Notes under the pieces: model-generated | The model's database searches: none | Seen by the model: the letters and a program-made list of their open reading frames with translations, nothing else | What the model was told of the DNA's origin: nothing | In this document: one piece after another, positions 3,484 to 56,744 of the stretch | Layout: each line of letters opens with the position of its first letter | How positions within the stretch are numbered: position 1 is the first letter of the stretch | Position numbers and translations under genes: made by a program | NCBI GenBank assembly: GCA_017999345.1 | Contig: JAGNLY010000002.1 | Location: forward strand, 4,425-68,424 | Source of the DNA: Candidatus Woesebacteria bacterium | GTDB lineage: Bacteria > Patescibacteriota > Microgenomatia > UBA1400 > PJMF01 | DNA length: 64,000 bases | Direction: 5' to 3'

Positions 3484-5340
3484 CTACTTAACAGTAACGC
3501 TTTTTGCTAAATTCCTAGGTTTATCAACATCATAGCTATTCTCCATTGCAATATAGCAAGTTAAAAGTTGAGATGGAATAATACTTGAAATGAAGGAAAA
3601 ATCATCTGTATCAGGAATTTGAATCCATTCATCGTAAAGTGAATTATTAAGTTTTGAAATAGCAATTATTCTTCCTCCCCTTGCCTTTACTTCAGTAATT
3701 GCGTTAAGCATATTTTTTTTGTTTTCATCTTCAGCAACCAAGCACATTACTGGAGTACCCTTGGTAACTAAAGCAATCACGCCATGCTTGAGTTCACCAC
3801 CAGAAAATCCTTCTGCATGAATATATGAAATTTCCTTTAATTTGAGAGCGCTTTCCAAAGTTGCATAATATAAATCACCTCGTCCTAATAAAAATAATTG
3901 ACTAGTATTAACTAATTTTTTAGCAATTTTTTTAATTTTTCTTTGAATAAGATTATCTCCAAACCATTCTGATAATTTATGTTCAAATTCATTAATTTTG
4001 ATTTCTATATCATTAAATTTTGATCCGGATAAAATTTCAGAAATAATCATTCCCCAAAGCACTTGACCCGAAAATGTCTTCGTACTAGCAACTGCTTGTT
4101 CAGGACCAACTTTTAACATAAATGTAAGATCTGACATTTGAGATAATGAACTTGCCGGCATATTTACCACACTAATAATTTTCATTTTGTTTTTTTTCAT
4201 TTGCTCAACAATTTCATTTGTATCTGCCGTCTCCCCGCTTTGACTAAACACTATGCCCACAGAATTTTTATCAAAGAAATCCTGATAAGAATCAGCTTCA
4301 TAGGCAGCAATAGTTGAGGCATAAATACCACTTTTTCTGAGCAAATACGCAGTATTTCCTGCAGCAAAGCTAGCAGAACCACTTCCGAGCGTAAAAACTT
4401 TATTTGATTCTTTAATCATCTTAGTAGCTAGCAAATAATCTTTGTTTGAATCTTTTATCACATTAGAAAGCATTGTTGCCTGTTCATGGATTTCCTTGAG
4501 CATAAAACTACTAAAATCATTTTTATTCATGTTCTGAATACTATTTTTCAGTGACTCTTCGTCTTTTATATGCTTAAAATTCACATCTACTGATTTTTGG
4601 GTTTTGACATCCATAAGACTAAATATACCATTTTGCGAATTAAAAATGGCCAACTGACCAGATTCAATAATTAAATAGCTCTCAATTAATCCAAACAATG
4701 AAATAATATCTGAGGAAAAATAAAACTCGCCCATTGAATTTTTGCCCACAACGAGTGGTGAACCATTTCTTATTGCCATTATTCGACCATCGTTGGTAAT
4801 GCATGCGATAGTATTTCTGCCCAATAGTCTGTTAAAAACTTTTATAAACGAATTTTCATCTAGAGTTTGAATTTCTCCCATCTCTTTTTCTAACAAACCT
4901 ACGATTACCTCGGTATCTGTTTCAGAAATAAAATCATATCCCGTTTTTTCAAGTTCTTGCTTTAGCTCCTGATAGTTATCAACTACCCCATTTTGCACCA
5001 GTGCAAAACATTCATTAGTGGCTAAGTGTGGATGGGCGTTGATTTTTGTTACACCACCATGAGTTGCCCACCTAGTGTGTCCCAAGGCTAAATTTGAGAC
5101 CAAATTTTCGAATTTCCTAGCATCACTAAGTTTTCCCGTTTCTTTTTGAACTTTTATTGCGAAGTTTGGTTTTTGACTATTATTGTTATCTTTTGATGAA
5201 GATTTAGAAAAAGTTGAAAAATTTTGTTCAACCAAAGTTGCAATTCCCCAAGAATCATAACCTCTATACTCAATTTTCTTTAAACCATCAAAAACTTTTT
5301 TATTAGCATCTGCACTAAAACTTGCATAAATTCCACACAT
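3484..5340 (-). CDS. glmS: glutamine--fructose-6-phosphate aminotransferase
   Basis: 618 aa; N-terminal MCGI (Ntn nucleophile Cys), GHTRWATHG, two SIS domains, C-terminal ..KSVTVK. Confidence 0.95.
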   Translation of the reverse strand: MCGIYASFSADANKKVFDGLKKIEYRGYDSWGIATLVEQNFSTFSKSSSKDNNNSQKPNFAIKVQKETGKLSDARKFENLVSNLALGHTRWATHGGVTKINAHPHLATNECFALVQNGVVDNYQELKQELEKTGYDFISETDTEVIVGLLEKEMGEIQTLDENSFIKVFNRLLGRNTIACITNDGRIMAIRNGSPLVVGKNSMGEFYFSSDIISLFGLIESYLIIESGQLAIFNSQNGIFSLMDVKTQKSVDVNFKHIKDEESLKNSIQNMNKNDFSSFMLKEIHEQATMLSNVIKDSNKDYLLATKMIKESNKVFTLGSGSASFAAGNTAYLLRKSGIYASTIAAYEADSYQDFFDKNSVGIVFSQSGETADTNEIVEQMKKNKMKIISVVNMPASSLSQMSDLTFMLKVGPEQAVASTKTFSGQVLWGMIISEILSGSKFNDIEIKINEFEHKLSEWFGDNLIQRKIKKIAKKLVNTSQLFLLGRGDLYYATLESALKLKEISYIHAEGFSGGELKHGVIALVTKGTPVMCLVAEDENKKNMLNAITEVKARGGRIIAISKLNNSLYDEWIQIPDTDDFSFISSIIPSQLLTCYIAMENSYDVDKPRNLAKSVTVK

Positions 5341-5960
5341 AATTATCCTTTTTGTGTACTAAAAATTATAAAATTGAAAAAATCGGCAAAACCAACAAAA
5401 TGATTGGTTTACCGCTTGATATCACTATTCACTCTATTAAAAATGTTTCCATTTCTTTTTTATAAATAGTGTTGATTGGACTATCAAAATGCCCAGGAGG
5501 TCTCCGTAGATTCTCGAGATTACGTGAATAATTTAGCAAATATACTTCATTATTCGGCAAAACTCGGTTCGATCGCTTTTACTTTTTCCAGTTTTAAAAA
5601 TTGATTCAATTATTTTTGAGTCTTATTTTTCTTATTCTGTAAAAAAACTAAAGCATCCTCCTTCCTCGTATCCCTTTTGTAAAATTATTTTTTTGTTTCT
5701 ATCAAAATTTGCGATTATTCGCACTCGCAGTAAATTAAAAATAGTTATTACAAATTAGGGCCACACGCTCAGATTTTTATTATATATTTAGTCCTTTCAT
5801 TTAAAATACTTATTTAATCCTACATTTGTCTTAAGCAAAAAACAAGTTTTATTGATCTTTTTCCTCTGTATCAAAAACTAATTTGTGATACAATATCAAT
5901 CTTATACGCAAAGGTATTTTTTATACCTGCTGCGTTTTATGAAAACACAGGGTCTAAAAT

Positions 5961-6308
5961 ATGAAAAAAGGTATTCATCCAAACTGGACAAATCAAGCTC
6001 AAGTTACTTGTAGTTGTGGCGCACAATTCACTATTGGTTCAACTCTAGATACATTAAAAGTAGATATTTGTAGCAAATGCCACCCTTTCTTTACAGGAGA
6101 AATGAAATTTGTTGACAGACAAGGTCGTGTCGATAAATTTATGAAAAAGATGCAAGTTGCTCAAACAATTCAATCAAAGAAATCAACCAAAAAATCTGCT
6201 AAAACAGAATCTGCTGAAGAATCAAAAACATACAAAGATGTTTTACTTCAACAACAAAATGTCCTCAAGCAAGTTGCTAAAACAAGAAAAGCACCAGCAG
6301 AAGCATAA
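5961..6308 (+). CDS. rpmE: 50S ribosomal protein L31 (zinc-ribbon type) with long C-terminal tail
   Basis: [23 protein letters not shown] is the L31 signature; about 45 extra Lys/Ala/Gln-rich residues at the C-terminus. Confidence 0.9.
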
Positions 6309-49264: not shown

Positions 49265-49344
49265 TTTCCCTTATCCAATATTTTATAAACTATAATTCTA
49301 ATAACTATATTTTATTTGCAGTGCCTAGCGAAGAAAGTAAGAAC

Positions 49345-49920
49345 CTATTTAATAAAGACTTCTTTGAGTACCTCCACTCTATGTTTGACTTCTGCCCTCA
49401 CTTCATCAAAAAATATTTTCTTGTTAAAATCATGCTCGATTTTTTTTGACACCCATTCTCTACATTCTTCAAAATTCTTATTTTCTGGCAAATGCATCCA
49501 AGTAAAATGTACAAAGAAATCTGTTGTTATGTGTGCTAAGGCATCTGCGGTTGCCATCACTTTACCTTCTATTTGAGTTGGAATAAACCCGTCTCTACAA
49601 GAATGTGGAGCAATCACCTCCTCTAAGATTTCTTTAATCTCTTCTCTGCTGTATCCTGCTTTTTCTAGTACTTGGCTAGATTTTTCTACAGTAATTGAAG
49701 CATGCTCAGCAGAGTTACGATGAACAAAAGCATCGCCAAAATCATGAAGCCATGCGCCAGCTACAGATATATCTGTCTTTGCTCCAAACCGATTAGATAA
49801 CTCCTCAGTTTTTTTTGCAACAACGGGAACGTGGTTCTTCCACATCCATTTACCAAACCACTCTTGAGAGTTTTCGTACGCATCCTTAACTAATTCAGCT
49901 ACTTTGGTATGTTTATTCAT
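49345..49920 (-). CDS. HD-domain phosphohydrolase
   Basis: NHVPVVAKK..AWLHDFGDAFVH..(H...HD...D pattern). Confidence 0.8.
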   Translation of the reverse strand: MNKHTKVAELVKDAYENSQEWFGKWMWKNHVPVVAKKTEELSNRFGAKTDISVAGAWLHDFGDAFVHRNSAEHASITVEKSSQVLEKAGYSREEIKEILEEVIAPHSCRDGFIPTQIEGKVMATADALAHITTDFFVHFTWMHLPENKNFEECREWVSKKIEHDFNKKIFFDEVRAEVKHRVEVLKEVFIK

Positions 49921-49970: not shown

Positions 49971-50234
49971 TCAATATTGGTCATGTCTTACTAAGTCAAA
50001 AAAAACATAAGCGTCATCCTCTTTAATTGCCAATGCTCGCAAATCTCCTTCTATTCGAATAGCATACTGACTGGATCTCTCGCCCTTTAATCTATGCAAA
50101 CGTAATCCCACATGATATGGATTTTCTTTAAATCTTTTAAATTGTTTTCTAAATGTTTTGTCTAAAAGAGGGTTTTTATTTATAAATTTTGATATTTTTT
50201 TCTTAAATGCTGAAGTATAAATAACTTTTGTCAT
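49971..50234 (-). CDS. type II toxin, RelE/ParE superfamily
   Basis: 87 aa; ..NPYHVGLRLHRLKGERSSQYAIRIEGDLRALAIKEDDAYVFFDLVRHDQY fits the RelE/ParE beta-sheet pattern; 4-nt overlap with the upstream small ORF. Confidence 0.75.
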   Translation of the reverse strand: MTKVIYTSAFKKKISKFINKNPLLDKTFRKQFKRFKENPYHVGLRLHRLKGERSSQYAIRIEGDLRALAIKEDDAYVFFDLVRHDQY

Positions 50235-50488
50235 AGAGAATCAAAAAACTCATCAACATCATCCATTTCATGAGTTTTTCCCAAACGATGATCTTCTAAA
50301 GCCTTTAAACCATTTTCTTCTGTTTCCTTGCTCATTTTAAAAGTTGGAACTTCATTTTTCAAAATTTCTTCTGATGCTTTACTTATAAAAAAACGAATAG
50401 TCTTTGGTAGATTGTAACCAAATTGAGAACCATAATTTTCCAAAAGAGCAGCTTCTTGAGTTGTGAGAGATAATTGAACTTTAGTCAT
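50231..50488 (-). CDS. antitoxin partner of the RelE/ParE-like toxin
   Basis: 85 aa, acidic C-terminus, ATGA overlap with toxin, palindromic operator in its promoter. Confidence 0.6.
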   Translation of the reverse strand: MTKVQLSLTTQEAALLENYGSQFGYNLPKTIRFFISKASEEILKNEVPTFKMSKETEENGLKALEDHRLGKTHEMDDVDEFFDSL

Positions 50489-50532: not shown

Positions 50533-50552
50533 AGAACTATTTTTGAGATTTT

Positions 50553-50620
50553 TCAGGGACTAGTGAATGATGTTAGAACCTATTTTTCCTCAAGTTGGGA
50601 TGTGGGCTTGGGCTTATAAG
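50553..50620 (-). repeat. tRNA-Trp-3'-portion-like repeat, copy A (most decayed long copy)
   Basis: Minus strand ..GGTTCTAACATCATTCACTAGTCCCTGAA; aligns with copies C/D; a half-copy gatttagaactattttt abuts it at 50528-50544. Confidence 0.65.
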
Positions 50621-51925: not shown

Positions 51926-51958
51926 CCCAAGATGGAACTCTTGAGTTTCCATCTTGGG
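51926..51958 (-). terminator. intrinsic terminator after the 153-aa ORF
   Basis: Perfect 12-bp inverted repeat cccaagatggaa / ttccatcttggg with 9-nt loop; T-rich tract follows on the minus strand. Confidence 0.6.
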
Positions 51959-51980
51959 CTGTTAATTGAATATTATTTTT

Positions 51981-52442
51981 TTATCTGCTAGTCCATATCG
52001 GACCAACAGACATTGAGGCCTGTCCAGACATGTGCTTCCAGATTAAGGTATCAAAGTTGTCGTAGGATGATAGGATGCAGGAAGAACCTTCTTCGCTATG
52101 CTCATCCATTGTGCTTGTGTCTTTTGAAATTACACAATACGTTCCGCCATTATTATGGACATAAGATTTATCACCCTGATGTCCGATAGATGGGGAATCC
52201 CCTTCAATGTAGAAACCAATGAAAAGGTAGGTAAACATGACCTTTTCCTTGGTGACCTCGTACACTTTGATTTGCGCAGTATTAATCTTGGTTAGCTCCC
52301 AATTAATAGGGTAATACCAAGAATAGATTGCACTTGCTAAAACCAAAAGTGCACAAACTGATATTAAGATCTGCAGCCAATTCTTATGAAGAAAGGCTAA
52401 AGAATTTCTTAATACCATCTTCAATGACTTAAAGCTAAACAT
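51981..52442 (-). CDS. hypothetical membrane-anchored protein
   Basis: GGAGG 5 nt before ATG 52442; single TM (ILISVCALLVLASAIY) then about 100-aa extracytoplasmic domain with 2 Cys. Confidence 0.55.
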   Translation of the reverse strand: MFSFKSLKMVLRNSLAFLHKNWLQILISVCALLVLASAIYSWYYPINWELTKINTAQIKVYEVTKEKVMFTYLFIGFYIEGDSPSIGHQGDKSYVHNNGGTYCVISKDTSTMDEHSEEGSSCILSSYDNFDTLIWKHMSGQASMSVGPIWTSR

Positions 52443-52629
52443 TTTGTCCTCCAGGACTCTGGTGCTACCAGAAAAATAGTCGGTGACAGTGCGCGACACT
52501 GTTTCTTATCCTCAAATTTATTTTAATTAAGAATAAAAAACAGTGTCGCTAATAATATTCAATTTTTAACGTGCATGCTCCAAAATTTTGATAAATATAT
52601 TATCAGTTTTAAAGCAAATGCAAAGAAAT

Positions 52630-52658
52630 ATTATATCAAAATATATCAATAATGTCAA
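52630..52658 (-). promoter_or_regulatory. consensus promoter TTGACA-N17-TGaTATAAT
   Basis: Minus strand TTGACA = 52653-52658, 17-nt spacer, TATAAT = 52630-52635 with TGA immediately upstream; lies directly next to repeat copy B. Confidence 0.6.
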
Positions 52659-52670
52659 TTGTTATAGGTC

Positions 52671-52705
52671 GTTGCAGGGACTAGTGAATGATTTTTGAAC
52701 CTATT
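52671..52705 (-). repeat. tRNA-Trp-3'-portion-like repeat, copy B (short)
   Basis: Minus strand GGTTCAAAAATCATTCACTAGTCCCTGCAAC; left flank identical to that of copy E, right part like copy A. Confidence 0.65.
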
Positions 52706-52724
52706 AAGTAGAGCAATGTGTTTC

Positions 52725-52754
52725 TTGACATCATAAGTTCTAAAATTATACAAT
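52725..52754 (+). promoter_or_regulatory. promoter TTGACA-N18-TACAAT
   Basis: TTGACA 52725-52730, TACAAT 52749-52754; ATG 52763 follows 8 nt later without SD. Confidence 0.4.
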
Positions 52755-52762
52755 TTGAATAT

Positions 52763-53014
52763 ATGAATAGCAAAGAACTGGCTAAGGTCAAAAAACCATT
52801 CGAACCAAGAGGATATTCAGTTGTGGCAAATGACCCGCTAGCACAATTATTGATTAATGAAACTTTAAGAGATTCAGGCTCGGGTACATTGGAAATGTAT
52901 GACCATGGGGAACTGATTCAATTTATGCTGCCGGCGAAAAGCATTGCCGAGCGAGATGCTTACATTATCATGCTTGAAGCATTGTATAAGATTCGTAAAA
53001 ATAAAAATCAATAA
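52763..53014 (+). CDS. hypothetical small protein
   Basis: 83 aa from ATG 52763 (track GTG 52718 would start inside the promoter); convergent with the 110-aa ORF. Confidence 0.45.
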   Translation: MNSKELAKVKKPFEPRGYSVVANDPLAQLLINETLRDSGSGTLEMYDHGELIQFMLPAKSIAERDAYIIMLEALYKIRKNKNQ

Positions 53015-53088
53015 TCTGCCCAACTACTTTCAGAATATATCAATAAGCTGCTGAATAAAACCATAAAATAGAGCACATTCGGCTATGT

Positions 53089-53421
53089 TCAAACTTTTTC
53101 TTTTGCAATTGGCGTACTATCAGCTGACCAGGAATAACCATATTTATCAATCTTTAGTTGGAGCTGTCTAAACCAAGGCATACAAATTCCATAAGCATTA
53201 AAACGAACGACTTCACCACTTTCAAGAGTTACCTCAAATCTACCATCTTCCTCTACCTTTGTGACTTTTCCTTTGGCAAGAAGATCAGTTGAATTTTGCA
53301 ACCTAGCTTCAAGCTCTACTTCAGCATCTATAGTAGCGACACTCCTAACAAAATCTCTGCGTTTCCTCGCATTTTCCATTTTGAGTTGCTCTGCCTCACC
53401 TTTGTCTAAATTTTCAAACAT
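53089..53421 (-). CDS. hypothetical small protein
   Basis: 110-aa ORF, AAGGAG 5 nt before ATG. Confidence 0.55.
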   Translation of the reverse strand: MFENLDKGEAEQLKMENARKRRDFVRSVATIDAEVELEARLQNSTDLLAKGKVTKVEEDGRFEVTLESGEVVRFNAYGICMPWFRQLQLKIDKYGYSWSADSTPIAKEKV

Positions 53422-53518
53422 TTTTCTCCTTATTCTTAATTGCTCTGAAATTAGTATACATCAACAAATAATCTTTGAAAAATAATTAGAAATTATGATA
53501 GGAAGACCTATTTATATG

Positions 53519-53600
53519 AAAAAATTGGTGATTTGCAGGGACTAGTAAAGGATGTTCGAACCTATTTTTCCTCGATTTGGGAGGTGGTTTTAGTCTTATA
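53519..53600 (-). repeat. tRNA-Trp-3'-portion-like repeat, copy C
   Basis: Minus strand ..ACCACCTCCCAAATCGAGGAAAAATAGGTTCGAACATCCTTTACTAGTCCCTGCAAATCACCAATTTTT; near-identical to copy D. Confidence 0.7.
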
Positions 53601-53634
53601 GTTTTGAACTATTTAATAATGTTTAATGAAAACA

Positions 53635-53937
53635 TTATTTTGGTGCTATGCGCCGAATATCGTTTAACAGTGTCATTAAAGCAACTGAGTCACTCCAATC
53701 CGCTGCGTTGACAAGATTTATAATATGATCTAACTTTGATGGATCTAGTCCATTATATACTGGCAATTTTTTAGCATCTACTAATCTAGCAATCATTTTT
53801 TTCTTAGCTCCTTCAAAATCATTATCATTTTTGAGTCTTACAGGTGTTAAAACATTTCCAAGTAAATCATCTAACTCAAACTGTGTTGAACCCCTATATT
53901 CATTATTCTCAGTCAATTCAGAACGATATGATTTCAT
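53635..53937 (-). CDS. hypothetical small protein
   Basis: 100-aa ORF preceded by TGATATAAT (53970-53978). Confidence 0.5.
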   Translation of the reverse strand: MKSYRSELTENNEYRGSTQFELDDLLGNVLTPVRLKNDNDFEGAKKKMIARLVDAKKLPVYNGLDPSKLDHIINLVNAADWSDSVALMTLLNDIRRIAPK

Positions 53938-54016
53938 AAAATGATATTTTCCATTTAGTATGCAAGTAAATTATATCATTTCTGAGAATAAAACTAAAAA
54001 ATAGATATCTATAGGC

Positions 54017-54096
54017 AAAAATTGGTGATTTGCAGGGATTAGTGAAGGATGTTCGCACCTATTATTATTCTAGTTTGGAGGTGGTTTTAGTCTTAA
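54017..54096 (-). repeat. tRNA-Trp-3'-portion-like repeat, copy D
   Basis: Minus strand ..ACCACCTCCAAACTAGAATAATAATAGGTGCGAACATCCTTCACTAATCCCTGCAAATCACCAATTTTT; contains CTCCAAA, identical to the Trp anticodon loop. Confidence 0.7.
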
Positions 54097-54132
54097 AATA
54101 ATTATGTTTAAATTCTGTTCTGTAGACGCAAA

Positions 54133-54157
54133 AGTGCCTCTCATTTAGAGAGGCACT
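54133..54157 (-). terminator. intrinsic terminator after the 69-aa ORF
   Basis: Perfect 10-bp stem agtgcctctc / gagaggcact, 5-nt loop, TTT on the minus strand. Confidence 0.6.
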
Positions 54158-54181
54158 GAAAACATTGCAAACTGAGTTTAT

Positions 54182-54391
54182 CTATTTTTTCTTTATGATG
54201 TTGAAAACTACTACGCCAACTATTCCAGCAGTAAGACCTGCTAAAAATGAAACTACAACCAATGGAAAAAAACCCATGGTTAGTTTCGGCACGACTAAAT
54301 GCTGGTAGCAAAAATTCAAACCTATGTTAACGAGCATAGACAATGAAAATGCTAACCTGTGGCCACGCATATCTTTGAACAAGTCTCTCAT
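54182..54391 (-). CDS. hypothetical small membrane protein (2 TM)
   Basis: 69 aa, GGAG 6 nt before ATG, two hydrophobic helices, KKK C-terminus. Confidence 0.5.
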   Translation of the reverse strand: MRDLFKDMRGHRLAFSLSMLVNIGLNFCYQHLVVPKLTMGFFPLVVVSFLAGLTAGIVGVVVFNIIKKK

Positions 54392-54573
54392 TTGATTCTC
54401 CAGTCAAATTATGGCTTTCCACTTCCTTCTCGTGAAACAGCTCTAAAAATCTCCCAAATTAATGAGGAACTTTATAAGCTGTTCCAATAAACTCTAGTTT
54501 TTAATGTGCATTAGAAATCAAACTCTTTTTCACCAGCAAATGGAGATAAGAATTTTTATTCTACTAATAGACT

Positions 54574-54602
54574 ATTATATCAAAATATATTGGATAAGTC
54601 AA
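54574..54602 (-). promoter_or_regulatory. consensus promoter TTGACT-N17-TGaTATAAT
   Basis: Minus strand TTGACT = 54597-54602, 17-nt spacer, TATAAT = 54574-54579; homologous to the 52630-52658 promoter. Confidence 0.6.
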
Positions 54603-54614
54603 TGTTATAGGTCG

Positions 54615-54634
54615 TTGCAGGGCCAGAGGGAATC
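54615..54634 (-). repeat. exact 20-nt copy of the tRNA-Trp 3' end (copy E)
   Basis: ttgcagggccagagggaatc identical to 54799-54818, same orientation. Confidence 0.9.
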
Positions 54635-54772
54635 TACGATTCGCCAACTATTTATATTTTAAGTCAGTTGGCTCACATGCATTTCCCAGGTGCCTTCACT
54701 TCGTTACGGCACTTGGTGTCAGAACTATGCTTCGCAAGGGTTAAATTTCCTATTGACCCCATAAAATAAAAT

Positions 54773-54790
54773 AGAACCCATTCGGGTTCT
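54773..54790 (-). terminator. intrinsic terminator after tRNA-Trp
   Basis: agaaccc attc gggttct hairpin; on the minus strand followed by ATTTTATTTTAT. Confidence 0.6.
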
Positions 54791-54801
54791 CTTTTACTTT
54801 G

Positions 54802-54872
54802 CAGGGCCAGAGGGAATCGAACCCCCGTCAAAGGTTTTGGAGACCTCTATTCTACCGCTAAACTATGGCCCT
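54802..54872 (-). tRNA. tRNA-Trp (anticodon CCA)
   Basis: AGGGCCA-TA-GTTT-AGCGGTA-GAAT-A-GAGGT-CTCCAAA-ACCTT-TGAC-GGGGG-TTCGATT-CCCTC-TGGCCCT-G; cloverleaf folds by hand; CCA end not encoded. Confidence 0.9.
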
Positions 54873-55430: not shown

Positions 55431-56744
55431 ATGCCAGAACTTTTTGACCCCTACTTAGTAGAAACTTTCAAAAAAGATAGAAAATTCCTCGAAACTACCA
55501 AAATTCCAATCATTACTGTCTCAGCCAGTTACAAAGAAGACCTCAAGAAAAGCCATGGTTTTCCAAACAACGACACCGTTAAAGATGTGGTTTTTTCTAG
55601 AGCTCACTACTCGATGGCATTGGGTGTTGCAATCAAAATTTGGGGTGACAAAATTGATGCAAAAAAAGCTTGGATTGTTGATCCAACCAACTATGTTTCA
55701 CATAAAAATTGGTCTTCAATAGAACTAACCGAGCTAATCGGCAAAACGCTTGCTCGCCATCCACTATTAAAGAAAATTAAAGATTTAATCGACACTTTCG
55801 GAAGATCAAAACTTCCAATCCTAAAAAGCATTACACCGCCACTTTTACATCTAACTGAAAACATTCATTCGCCAATTCTCTCTTTCCACATTGCAGCAGG
55901 TAATATTTTGGCCGGACAAGGAAAGAAAATTGTTCAAGTAATTACTGACCCACATGTTAGAGAGGAATATGTTAAATTTGCGGATAAAAAAAATGTTAAG
56001 TTCTGCGTTTTTGATGAAGATACAAAGATCGAGTTTATGGAAAAAGCTGCCTTACTTGGAATTAAAGCCAATCCTGACAGAGTTATTGTCACTGGTCCTC
56101 CAATTGATCCACGTGTCATTCAAGCCAAAACCAAAAAACACCCATGGCGAAATGGCCCGATCAACCTTTGTATTACCACCGGTGGCCTAGGCACAAATAA
56201 AACTGAAATGATGGAACTTTTGGAACAAATTTTACCGGAACTTAGAAAGCAGAATCCAAAATACAAACTCCTTGTTTATACTAGTACCCATCAAGATATA
56301 AATTTAAAAGTTAGAGAACTTGCAGAAAAAAATCATGTCAAAGCATCTGATCTCAAAGAAAAATCTGCCAAACTTAGAATTATTCACCACCCACAGTTAG
56401 TTGATGCTAATGAAATGTTAGTTAAATACGCTTTTCCTTGGGCAGATGGCTTCCTAACCAAGCCTTCAGGAGACATGGCCTATGATGTTGCCGTCTCTGG
56501 ATCTTTTATACTCACTTTGGCAGAATGGGGCGAATGGGAAGAGAAAATTAGAGAAATTTTTGAACAAAAAGACATTGCTAGAAAAGCTATCTCAGATAAT
56601 ATCGTAGCGCAGTTGGAAGTCCTGTCATCAGCTTCAGAAAAATCGCAGTCATGGATTGAAAAAGCCATGAACCAAGCTCACTCTATCGAGCCTCTTTTCT
56701 TGAATGGAGCAAAAGAAATTATCAAAGTTGTTGAAGAATTCTAA
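55431..56744 (+). CDS. GT-B-fold glycosyltransferase (UgtP/MGDG-synthase/MurG-like)
   Basis: LCITTGGLGTNK and FLTKPSGDMAYDVAVSGSFIL resemble the C-terminal nucleotide-sugar-binding half of GT28-type enzymes. Confidence 0.5.
   Translation: MPELFDPYLVETFKKDRKFLETTKIPIITVSASYKEDLKKSHGFPNNDTVKDVVFSRAHYSMALGVAIKIWGDKIDAKKAWIVDPTNYVSHKNWSSIELTELIGKTLARHPLLKKIKDLIDTFGRSKLPILKSITPPLLHLTENIHSPILSFHIAAGNILAGQGKKIVQVITDPHVREEYVKFADKKNVKFCVFDEDTKIEFMEKAALLGIKANPDRVIVTGPPIDPRVIQAKTKKHPWRNGPINLCITTGGLGTNKTEMMELLEQILPELRKQNPKYKLLVYTSTHQDINLKVRELAEKNHVKASDLKEKSAKLRIIHHPQLVDANEMLVKYAFPWADGFLTKPSGDMAYDVAVSGSFILTLAEWGEWEEKIREIFEQKDIARKAISDNIVAQLEVLSSASEKSQSWIEKAMNQAHSIEPLFLNGAKEIIKVVEEF

Follow-up and report, generated by a model that had tools for sequence, protein, structure and literature searches.

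A block of 184 bp directly behind the tRNA-Trp(CCA) gene of a Candidatus Woesebacteria genome is one complete non-coding unit in a co-oriented chain of small units, which follows this tRNA in a clade of the ultra-small Patescibacteria. The block lies at 54615-54798 of a 64-kb stretch of contig JAGNLY010000002.1 (assembly GCA_017999345.1), hereafter the window, and we name it the T-module. It consists of 164 bp and one copy of a 20-mer, the T-site, which repeats the 3' end of the tRNA. A second site class of 34 nt, named the D-site, closes the gene-carrying units of the chain. We suggest, with slightly better than even confidence, that the T-module is a non-coding unit of an array built by recombination at tRNA-Trp, where it provides a terminator and duplicates the tRNA-side half of the target.

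The window contains exactly two copies of the 20-mer TTGCAGGGCCAGAGGGAATC, one at 54615-54634 and the other at 54799-54818. The count does not change with up to 3 mismatches, and the number expected by chance is 0 (100 shuffles). Copy 1 (54799-54818, minus strand, GATTCCCTCTGGCCCTGCAA) lies in and just past the tRNA-Trp(CCA) gene, the anchor of the array (54801/54802-54872, minus strand; ARAGORN; Rfam tRNA, 66.2 bits). Copy 2 (54615-54634, minus strand) is an exact repeat in identical orientation, 164 bp downstream of the tRNA, and closes the T-module; at every T-module end elsewhere the 20-mer has 0-2 changes. On the tRNA strand it is composed of GATT (T-loop end), CCCTC (T-stem 3' strand), TGGCCCT (acceptor 3' strand), the discriminator G and the trailer CAA, that is, of the last 17 nt of the tRNA and 3 nt of trailer. 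The first-pass annotation of the window had described this exact direct repeat with 164 bp enclosed, at these same positions, and had assigned it to the T-arm and acceptor 3' strands, the discriminator and 3 nt of trailer; both statements hold. So does its remark that no open reading frame (ORF) lies between the copies: the 164-bp interval contains none, and only two mechanical 52-aa ORFs (54504-54662, plus strand, and 54673-54831, minus strand) overlap its edges. The layout is identical in the NCBI metagenome-assembled genome (MAG) GCA_020049755.1 and in an independent Logan assembly, which excludes an assembly artefact; a third assembly holds a ~95% identical version.

Occupied and empty alleles are found among seven contigs which encode an identical L33 protein. 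In L003 (~98% identical to the window) the 20-mer is single and tRNA-Trp is joined directly to the left flank of the window, CGACCTATAAC... This allele equals the window minus exactly one 20-mer and 164 bp (184 bp), with the junction inside the 20-mer. The first-pass annotation had read the repeat as the footprint of an integration into the tRNA 3' end and had proposed to seek an empty site in sibling genomes; L003 has this site, which supports a recombination-type footprint. L002 (~92% identical) also has a single 20-mer. It joins the tRNA's CCCTGCAA(A) to the unit which starts at about 53532 in the window, after the D-site at 53533, and only 8-9 nt of sequence are shared at this junction. 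Beyond the shared unit L002 has 480 bp of unique DNA, followed by a conserved 519-aa gene (window 46600). L003 is also without the 497-bp unit 2 with its 100-aa ORF, and here the junction lies inside a 90-nt repeat. The right-hand neighbour of the T-module has the module beside it in the window and lacks it in L003, and the downstream units of L005 and L002 share only a start motif of ~20 nt. In the siblings of the window lineage no larger insert was seen between two 20-mers. The region at ~46.6-54.8 kb is a hypervariable island of small units downstream of tRNA-Trp.

Recurrence of the T-module and the D-sites

The T-module recurs in other genomes. A scan with the 20-mer, one genome per species, returned nine stretches, mostly of MAGs labelled Patescibacteria, with three labelled Gammaproteobacteria or Pseudomonadales, and ten distinct full-length variants of the module were found. 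It stands directly after tRNA-Trp in five lineages (the window, L005, L009, L010 and L017/L031); the unit that follows it differs between the window, L005, L009 and L031, and L010 ends inside the module. It also stands after D-sites, in L012/L018 and five times in L015/L016. Contig JACKFW010000001.1 (HK-STAS-PATE-15, below PATE-15) has the 20-mer, with 0-1 changes, once at the tRNA and in five further copies inside 9 kb, and each of these five ends a segment of ~183 nt which is homologous over its full length to window 54615-54798. The boundaries are constant: the module starts immediately after CCCTGCAA and ends with the 20-mer.

The module is more conserved than its neighbours. Between the window and L009 it is 99.2% identical (119 nt), against 83.3% for the L33 gene and 76.9% for the gene of the adjacent 437-aa protein; between the window and L031 the values are 88.3% against 76.8%. 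Across genera, the DNA which the arrays have in common consists nearly entirely of T-modules and D-sites. Hence the words 'stub' and 'filler', used in the first-pass annotation for the 164 bp, do not fit: the interval is a conserved self-contained unit with the same ends in five tRNA-Trp lineages and in the arrays of two other genomes. Neither the 20-mer nor a degenerate D-site pattern had a match in the viral contigs scanned, and a blastn search of phage and plasmid records with 54006-54830 returned none either. A metagenome scan with the pattern of the T-module 3' junction returned two stretches only, so the sample for covariation is small.

The D-site has the consensus AATAGGTTCGAACATCCTTCACTAGTCCCTGCAA (34 nt), with 27 distinct instances, a few of which are degenerate, in the related genomes examined. 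The consensus is present base for base in L009, in the mb.79 MAG and in PATE-15. All D-sites are co-oriented with the tRNA, and the sites occur only behind tRNA-Trp; the five in the window all lie within the island, with none elsewhere in the 64 kb. A long form has 30 further conserved bases upstream. Folded as DNA, the D-sites give z = +0.5 to -0.95; they do not fold and are thus not attC-like. Almost all D- and T-sites share the last 8 nt of the tRNA. Units start right after CCCTGCAA and nearly all close with CCCTGCAA, a few D-sites having a variant core such as CCCTGAAA. Gene-carrying units close with a D-site and are present or absent as whole blocks, with breaks at these sites. The first-pass annotation had supposed that the real cargo might extend leftwards to more decayed copies of the repeat. 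The direction was right, as the extent of the island demonstrates; the supposed decayed copies are this second conserved site.

Many of the cargo ORFs end where a D-site begins or within its opening bases (TAG or TAA in AATAGG), or immediately before it, as in window 49345-49920, L015, L016 and L018, so that the unit boundary abuts coding sequence. Many units begin with a promoter-like start. The cargo includes Fic/DOC, RecQ, HD, GNAT, NUDIX and P-loop kinase proteins and ParE-like toxin pairs, and most of the proteins have no family match.

Several observations were made on related arrangements. L015 3147-6910 holds three tandem copies (81-99% identity) of a 1732-bp block composed of a T-module, a unit with a 196-aa ORF and a GNAT unit of 147 aa. 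In a Gottesmanbacteria MAG (L014, about 3930-4062; CAWBPL010000002.1) a repeat of ~31 nt of the tRNA-Trp 3' end lies ~29 nt downstream of the tRNA; this stub is smaller still and its sequence is unrelated to the T-module. An orphan tRNA-Trp end of 23 nt, including TTC of the T-loop, lies at 5457-5476 of L013 (mb.79 MAG, JAHIVL010000091.1), 141 nt downstream of tRNA-Leu(CAA), and is followed by three small unknown ORFs and core genes (Lgt, LspA). The orphan site may mark a second small island.

Anatomy of the T-module and the candidate recombinase

The T-module starts, directly after the tRNA, with an intrinsic-terminator-like element found by a terminator scan (54761-54798, minus strand), which comprises a hairpin at 54773-54790 and a T-run at 54761-54772. 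The rest, up to copy 2 of the 20-mer, is a conserved non-coding body (54635-54760, minus strand), characterized by alignments, RNAalifold with pair counts, and folds. The module thus puts a terminator hairpin directly behind the tRNA and re-creates the tRNA-side half-site before the promoter of the next unit. Comparison of genomes reveals two pairs of the terminator stem in which both bases have changed, one from G-C to A-U and the other from A-U to U-A. The 38-nt terminator part stands alone after a D-site in L031.

The three hairpins of the first-pass annotation are all found where it had placed them: the terminator stem, a 9-bp central hairpin at 54686-54694/54708-54716 (with a G-T pair on the plus strand, an A-C mismatch on the tRNA strand) and a 7-bp stem at 54643-54649/54666-54672. 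The central hairpin comes in three versions, unrelated in sequence and swapped wholesale between variant types. It is also an insertion hotspot, with a 39-nt insert in L009 (4891-4930) and tandem-repeat expansions of ~30 nt and 9 nt in the mb.79 population (L011 about 5810-6045, L018 6543-6780); a related repeat sequence appears inverted beside the orphan site of L013. The body further contains a small hairpin, AUGC-GAA-GCAU, which is ACAC-GAA-GUGU in one variant. The GGGGTCA at the 5' end of the body (54754-54760) is able to pair with TGGCCCT of the second 20-mer, and the consensus and all five folded variants are predicted to form a closing stem between GGGGTCR-AT-AGG and CCT-C-TGGCCCT, the latter in the terminal 20-mer. 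The changes in this stem are one-sided only, since the 3' strand is fixed by tRNA identity, and mostly preserve pairing via G-U. Upstream of the 20-mer GGCGARTCGYA is conserved. The adjoining gaatc-tac-gattc (54630-54642; GAATC-GTA-GATTC on the tRNA strand) had been read as a mimic of a T-arm; the motif is real and conserved, but mimicry is not supported, the changes available to test it being one-sided.

The 190-nt stretch folds better than its shuffles, with z = -3.8 on the tRNA strand and -4.6 on the plus strand. The terminator supplies most of this excess; five variants folded without it give z from -0.3 to -2.3, and the predicted internal folds differ among variant types. Among the ten variants five pairs are changed on both sides. 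Two of these are in the terminator and two come from a single sequence; outside the terminator such changes affect the small hairpin (in the single sequence) and one pair of the central hairpin. A scan of Rfam 15, at the gathering threshold and at E<=10, matched only tRNA(s), and ARAGORN found no tmRNA. In the module body, between the terminator and the promoter of the next unit, no promoter-like site was found. The T-module is probably not an RNA gene, and we favour a role at the DNA level.

Two other identities were considered for the block and rejected. A small protein starting from ATGGGG of the body is contradicted by ORF lengths of 12-69 aa across variants, one frameshifting indel and the lack of a Shine-Dalgarno sequence. 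A miniature inverted-repeat transposable element is contradicted by the ends, AGTAAAAGAG... and ...GGCCCTGCAA, which are not inverted copies, by the single copy in the window and by the flanking repeat, which is 20 nt of tRNA rather than a short target-site duplication.

Homologues of the 437-aa protein led to three loci (L022, L032 and L033), in which a large serine recombinase of 513-521 aa (Resolvase, Recombinase and zinc ribbon domains) lies against tRNA-Trp. The recombinase element then carries an HTH_3/LexA-S24 module and variable cargo, and the first D-site-like sequence is met 5.8-7.9 kb from the tRNA (L032 5659-5692, L033 3577-3610, L022 730-763). The two ends of the elements share CCTGCA. 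A direct repeat of the L022-type tRNA end was not found at the far end of the recombinase element, and a D-site stands there instead. The tRNA allele of L032 is essentially that of the window, and in L022 an ordinary D-site unit follows the recombinase element. We infer from its position in these three loci that the D-site is the distal, attR-type attachment (att) site of the serine recombinase element family, with exchange in the CCCTGCA core. The possibility that the T-module is the decayed 3' end of a recombinase element was rejected, as local alignment was no better than for shuffles (z <= 1.7).

The recombinase ORFs (L022 6835-8394, L032 10001-11577, L033 10001-11554) extend into the antisense of the tRNA-Trp 3' end and gain 12-15 codons there; in a reconstructed circular form the ORF would stop at ACTAGT-TGA inside the D-site. 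The tRNA-Trp allele of L022 (8322-8394), and of L021-L030, is clearly different (acceptor AGGATCG) and the 105-aa ORF is missing beside it. The neighbouring 436-aa protein of L022 is as close to that of the window as are those of L009 and L031. This suggests that the tRNA region of the L022 lineage was replaced together with the recombinase element.

Proposed mechanism, rival explanations and known systems

We propose that site-specific recombination, with exchange in the shared CCCTGCA(A) core, brings units into the chain and takes them out. The enzyme would act in trans, and the strongest candidate for it is the family of large serine recombinases which abut tRNA-Trp in three related lineages, in elements of 6-8 kb. 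The T-module would be retained because it offers a second site for landing or exchange and also insulates transcription. With this mechanism the empty junction would read GGGGGTTCGATTCCCTCTGGCCCTGCAACGACCTATAAC and the junction of a circle or tandem GGCGAATCGTAGATTCCCTCTGGCCCTGCAAAGTAAAAGAG; after excision of the L032 element, its flanks would join as tRNA-Trp followed directly by GAACATAAATAGG.

Several points weigh against this proposal. No recombinase was found in the annotated part of the window (4.1-64 kb), nor in the arrays examined that bear T-modules (for PATE-15, within 10 kb), hence an enzyme acting in trans has to be postulated. For the loss of the 184 bp, a deletion between two 20-bp repeats suffices, and the loss of unit 2 in L003 is explicable by homologous recombination between its 90-nt repeats, which are 87% identical. 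The serine recombinase is tied to the D-site through position in three loci. The arms beside the core differ, GATTCCCTCTGG in the T-site and CCTTCACTAGT in the D-site, so that the use of both by one enzyme is presumed. Local alignment detects no similarity of the T-module to the recombinase elements. Finally, the G-U-rich pairing of the ends favours the tRNA-sense strand and leaves room for a role as RNA.

A broader form of the proposal is that the locus is an integron-like platform for gene capture at the tRNA-Trp 3' end in Patescibacteria. There, a trans-acting large serine recombinase would insert and shuffle promoter-bearing, one-gene D-site units. Selection would maintain the T-module as a portable copy of the target, serving as second landing site or as decoy which spares the essential tRNA, combined with an insulating terminator. 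We regard this picture as tentative, possible rather than probable.

It is unlikely that the block is an inert scar, left when a larger element, integrated in the tRNA-Trp 3' end with attL and attR on either side, suffered an internal deletion that spared only 164 bp without function. The direct repeat of the tRNA 3' end, the empty allele, the lack of a gene in the interval and the tiny stub of L014 (~31-nt repeat around ~29 nt) all agree with such an origin, and tandem scars at tRNA genes are well known, for example in tycheposon islands (bioRxiv 10.1101/2020.12.28.424599). However, an inert remnant would be expected to lose its sequence no more slowly than the genes beside it, and the module is more conserved than the L33 gene. 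It recurs after D-sites with identical boundaries, five times in one genome, and has no similarity to the recombinase elements at the locus. Another explanation does without a dedicated recombination system. The T- and D-sequences could be conserved punctuation with a different role (such as termination, processing or promoter context), with units moved only by general homologous or illegitimate recombination between these repeats. Their lengths of 20, 34 and 90 nt would suffice for RecA-dependent or slippage deletion; the lack of a nearby recombinase and the promoter-like starts of many units fit as well. We hold this to be quite unlikely, as the sites occur only behind tRNA-Trp and in a single orientation, almost all share the last 8 nt of the tRNA, and the L002 junction has just 8-9 nt in common. 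In addition, the D-sites do not fold (z about 0), and the same D-site closes the recombinase-bearing elements at tRNA-Trp in three lineages.

The folding data bear on one more explanation, in which the body and the terminal 20-mer (54615-54760) would be transcribed as a small structured RNA with a tRNA-like end, with a multi-branch fold that an acceptor-like stem GGGGUCA/UGGCCCU, followed by G, closes, and perhaps with tRNA-like processing. The closing stem predicted in all five variants and the consensus, the one-sided changes of its 5' strand which mostly keep G-U pairing and thereby fit the tRNA-sense strand, the change of AUGC-GAA-GCAU to ACAC-GAA-GUGU, the persistence of a central hairpin through sequence replacement in three variant types and the high sequence conservation would all suit such an RNA. 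Against it are the lack of an Rfam match even at E<=10, the lack of a promoter-like site with a terminator immediately upstream, and the weak stability of the body alone (z -0.3 to -2.3). Compensatory changes outside the terminator are confined to the small hairpin of a single sequence and one pair of the central hairpin, the internal folds vary by variant type, and the centre tolerates 39-nt insertions and tandem-repeat expansions. An RNA gene is thus distinctly unlikely, and we retain the reading of the T-module as a non-coding unit of a recombination-built array.

Among known systems, the closest precedent is the ssrA islands of Dehalococcoides (PMC3146451). These are arranged in tandem downstream of an essential small-RNA gene, and each has as its boundary either this gene itself or a direct repeat, 20 bp long, of the 3' end; a conserved motif which does not match the gene stands just upstream of the repeat, and a CcrB-like serine recombinase of ~540 aa lies against attL on the reverse strand. 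Fifteen of the islands lack an integration module and were read as cis-mobilizable (PMC3146451). The likeness extends to the 20-nt repeat that starts in the T-loop, to GGCGARTCGYA upstream of it, to the 513-521-aa serine recombinase at tRNA-Trp in related lineages, and to multiple co-oriented copies of the 20-mer in L015/L016 and L012/L018, as in islands of the ssrA or staphylococcal cassette chromosome (SCC) type. However, the target here is tRNA-Trp rather than the transfer-messenger RNA, the units are mostly of 0.2-2 kb with one or two genes rather than of many kb, and most of the punctuation falls to the D-site, a second class of sites not identical to the first. Furthermore, one unit is wholly non-coding, conserved and multi-copy, and the arrays that hold it have no recombinase.

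Cis-mobilizable elements (CIMEs) of the ICESt1/ICESt3 family and ccr-less pseudo-SCC elements at rlmH have functional att repeats and no recombinase of their own, stand in tandem with related elements and use an enzyme in trans. The T-module resembles a CIME in being flanked by att-type repeats and devoid of genes for recombination or transfer. The known examples of CIMEs and pseudo-SCC elements are of kilobase size and bear genes, and to our knowledge no gene-less unit of 184 bp conserved across genera has been described for them. CIMEs are also cited in PMC3146451.

In comparison with integrated elements that target tRNA genes, the repeat and the empty site are present here, but an integrase and cargo between the repeats are absent. 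In the tycheposon islands of Prochlorococcus, repeated integration at a single tRNA moves the earlier elements inward and leaves partial tRNAs and degenerate elements scattered over the island (bioRxiv 10.1101/2020.12.28.424599). The hypervariable island next to a tRNA and its push-inward growth are similar. Tycheposons, however, use tyrosine recombinases and measure kilobases, and their partial tRNAs are described as remnants, not as a conserved site class or a conserved unit without cargo. Integron arrays and clusters of attC sites lacking an integrase (CALINs, PMC4889954) are similar in outline, with co-oriented, mostly single-gene units whose 3' site often abuts the stop codon, with toxin-antitoxin, GNAT and unknown cargo, and with gene content that differs between close strains. 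Two defining features of integrons are missing, however: no IntI-type tyrosine recombinase stands beside the array, and its sites, which are conserved in primary sequence, form no attC-like hairpins, with nothing attC-like in the Rfam scan. The units have their own promoter-like starts, and the anchor is the 3' end of a tRNA. In sum, the array is distinct from all the systems compared in its small compact units, in two site classes which share only their last 8 nt, and in a conserved multi-copy unit without genes.

Patescibacteria have genomes of ~1 Mb with few recognised mobile elements. A chain anchored at tRNA-Trp and marked by two short conserved sequences therefore gives a searchable handle on gene gain and loss in these bacteria. 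The T-module also illustrates that a repeat-bounded 'stub' can itself be a conserved unit, which is unusual for tRNA-associated islands. Large serine recombinases are used in genome engineering; if their link to the D-sites is true, each recombinase, with its D-site and tRNA-Trp end, would form a natural enzyme-site pair.

Units of the island and neighbouring genes in the window

The features listed in this paragraph are on the minus strand. Unit 1 (54064-54614), which in L003 stands directly after the tRNA, begins with a near-consensus sigma-70-type promoter (54574-54602; TTGACT-17-TATAAT with TG, 11/12 matches). A 69-aa membrane-like ORF (54182-54391) and a hairpin terminator that belongs to the unit itself (about 54130-54165) come next, and behind the unit stands a D-site of the 34-nt family at 54030-54063 (AATAGGTGCGAACATCCTTCACTAATCCCTGCAA; long form 54006-54095). 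Unit 2 (53567-54029; 497 bp), absent from L003, contains the 100-aa ORF at 53635-53937, and the next D-site lies at 53533-53566 (long form 53509-53598), where L002 has the tRNA's own CCCTGCAA(A). Unit 3 (53045-53532), with a 110-aa ORF (53089-53421), is common to L002 and L003. The D-site at 52672-52705 is followed by a consensus promoter, TTGACA-17-TATAAT, and a 172-aa ORF. The two remaining D-sites are at 50551-50584 (long form 50527 to about 50616) and, in degenerate form, at 49316-49349, where its TAG is the stop codon of a 191-aa ORF (49345-49920).

A segment of ~1.07 kb (51954-53023) with imperfect inverted-repeat ends of 27 nt (81% complementary) is absent from L003. It contains the D-site 52672-52705 together with the TTGACA-17-TATAAT promoter and the 172-aa ORF. 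The L003 junction lies off the D- and T-sites, so this is a different kind of indel. At 49971-50488, inside the island, two overlapping genes encode proteins of 85 and 87 aa with a weak ParE-like match; a distant homologue of the pair is a D-site-bounded unit in L018. A 504-aa ORF at the edge of the PATE-15 region examined was compared with the 519-aa flank gene of the window and is not the same gene.

The genes that flank tRNA-Trp encode the 105-aa ORF, the 437-aa protein without Pfam match and L33. The 437-aa protein (55431-56744) has 923 matches at E<=1e-30, in hundreds of Patescibacteria. The order L33, 437-aa gene, tRNA-Trp is retained among the Patescibacteria homologues, a few of which bear PF22053 or a glycosyltransferase-type name.

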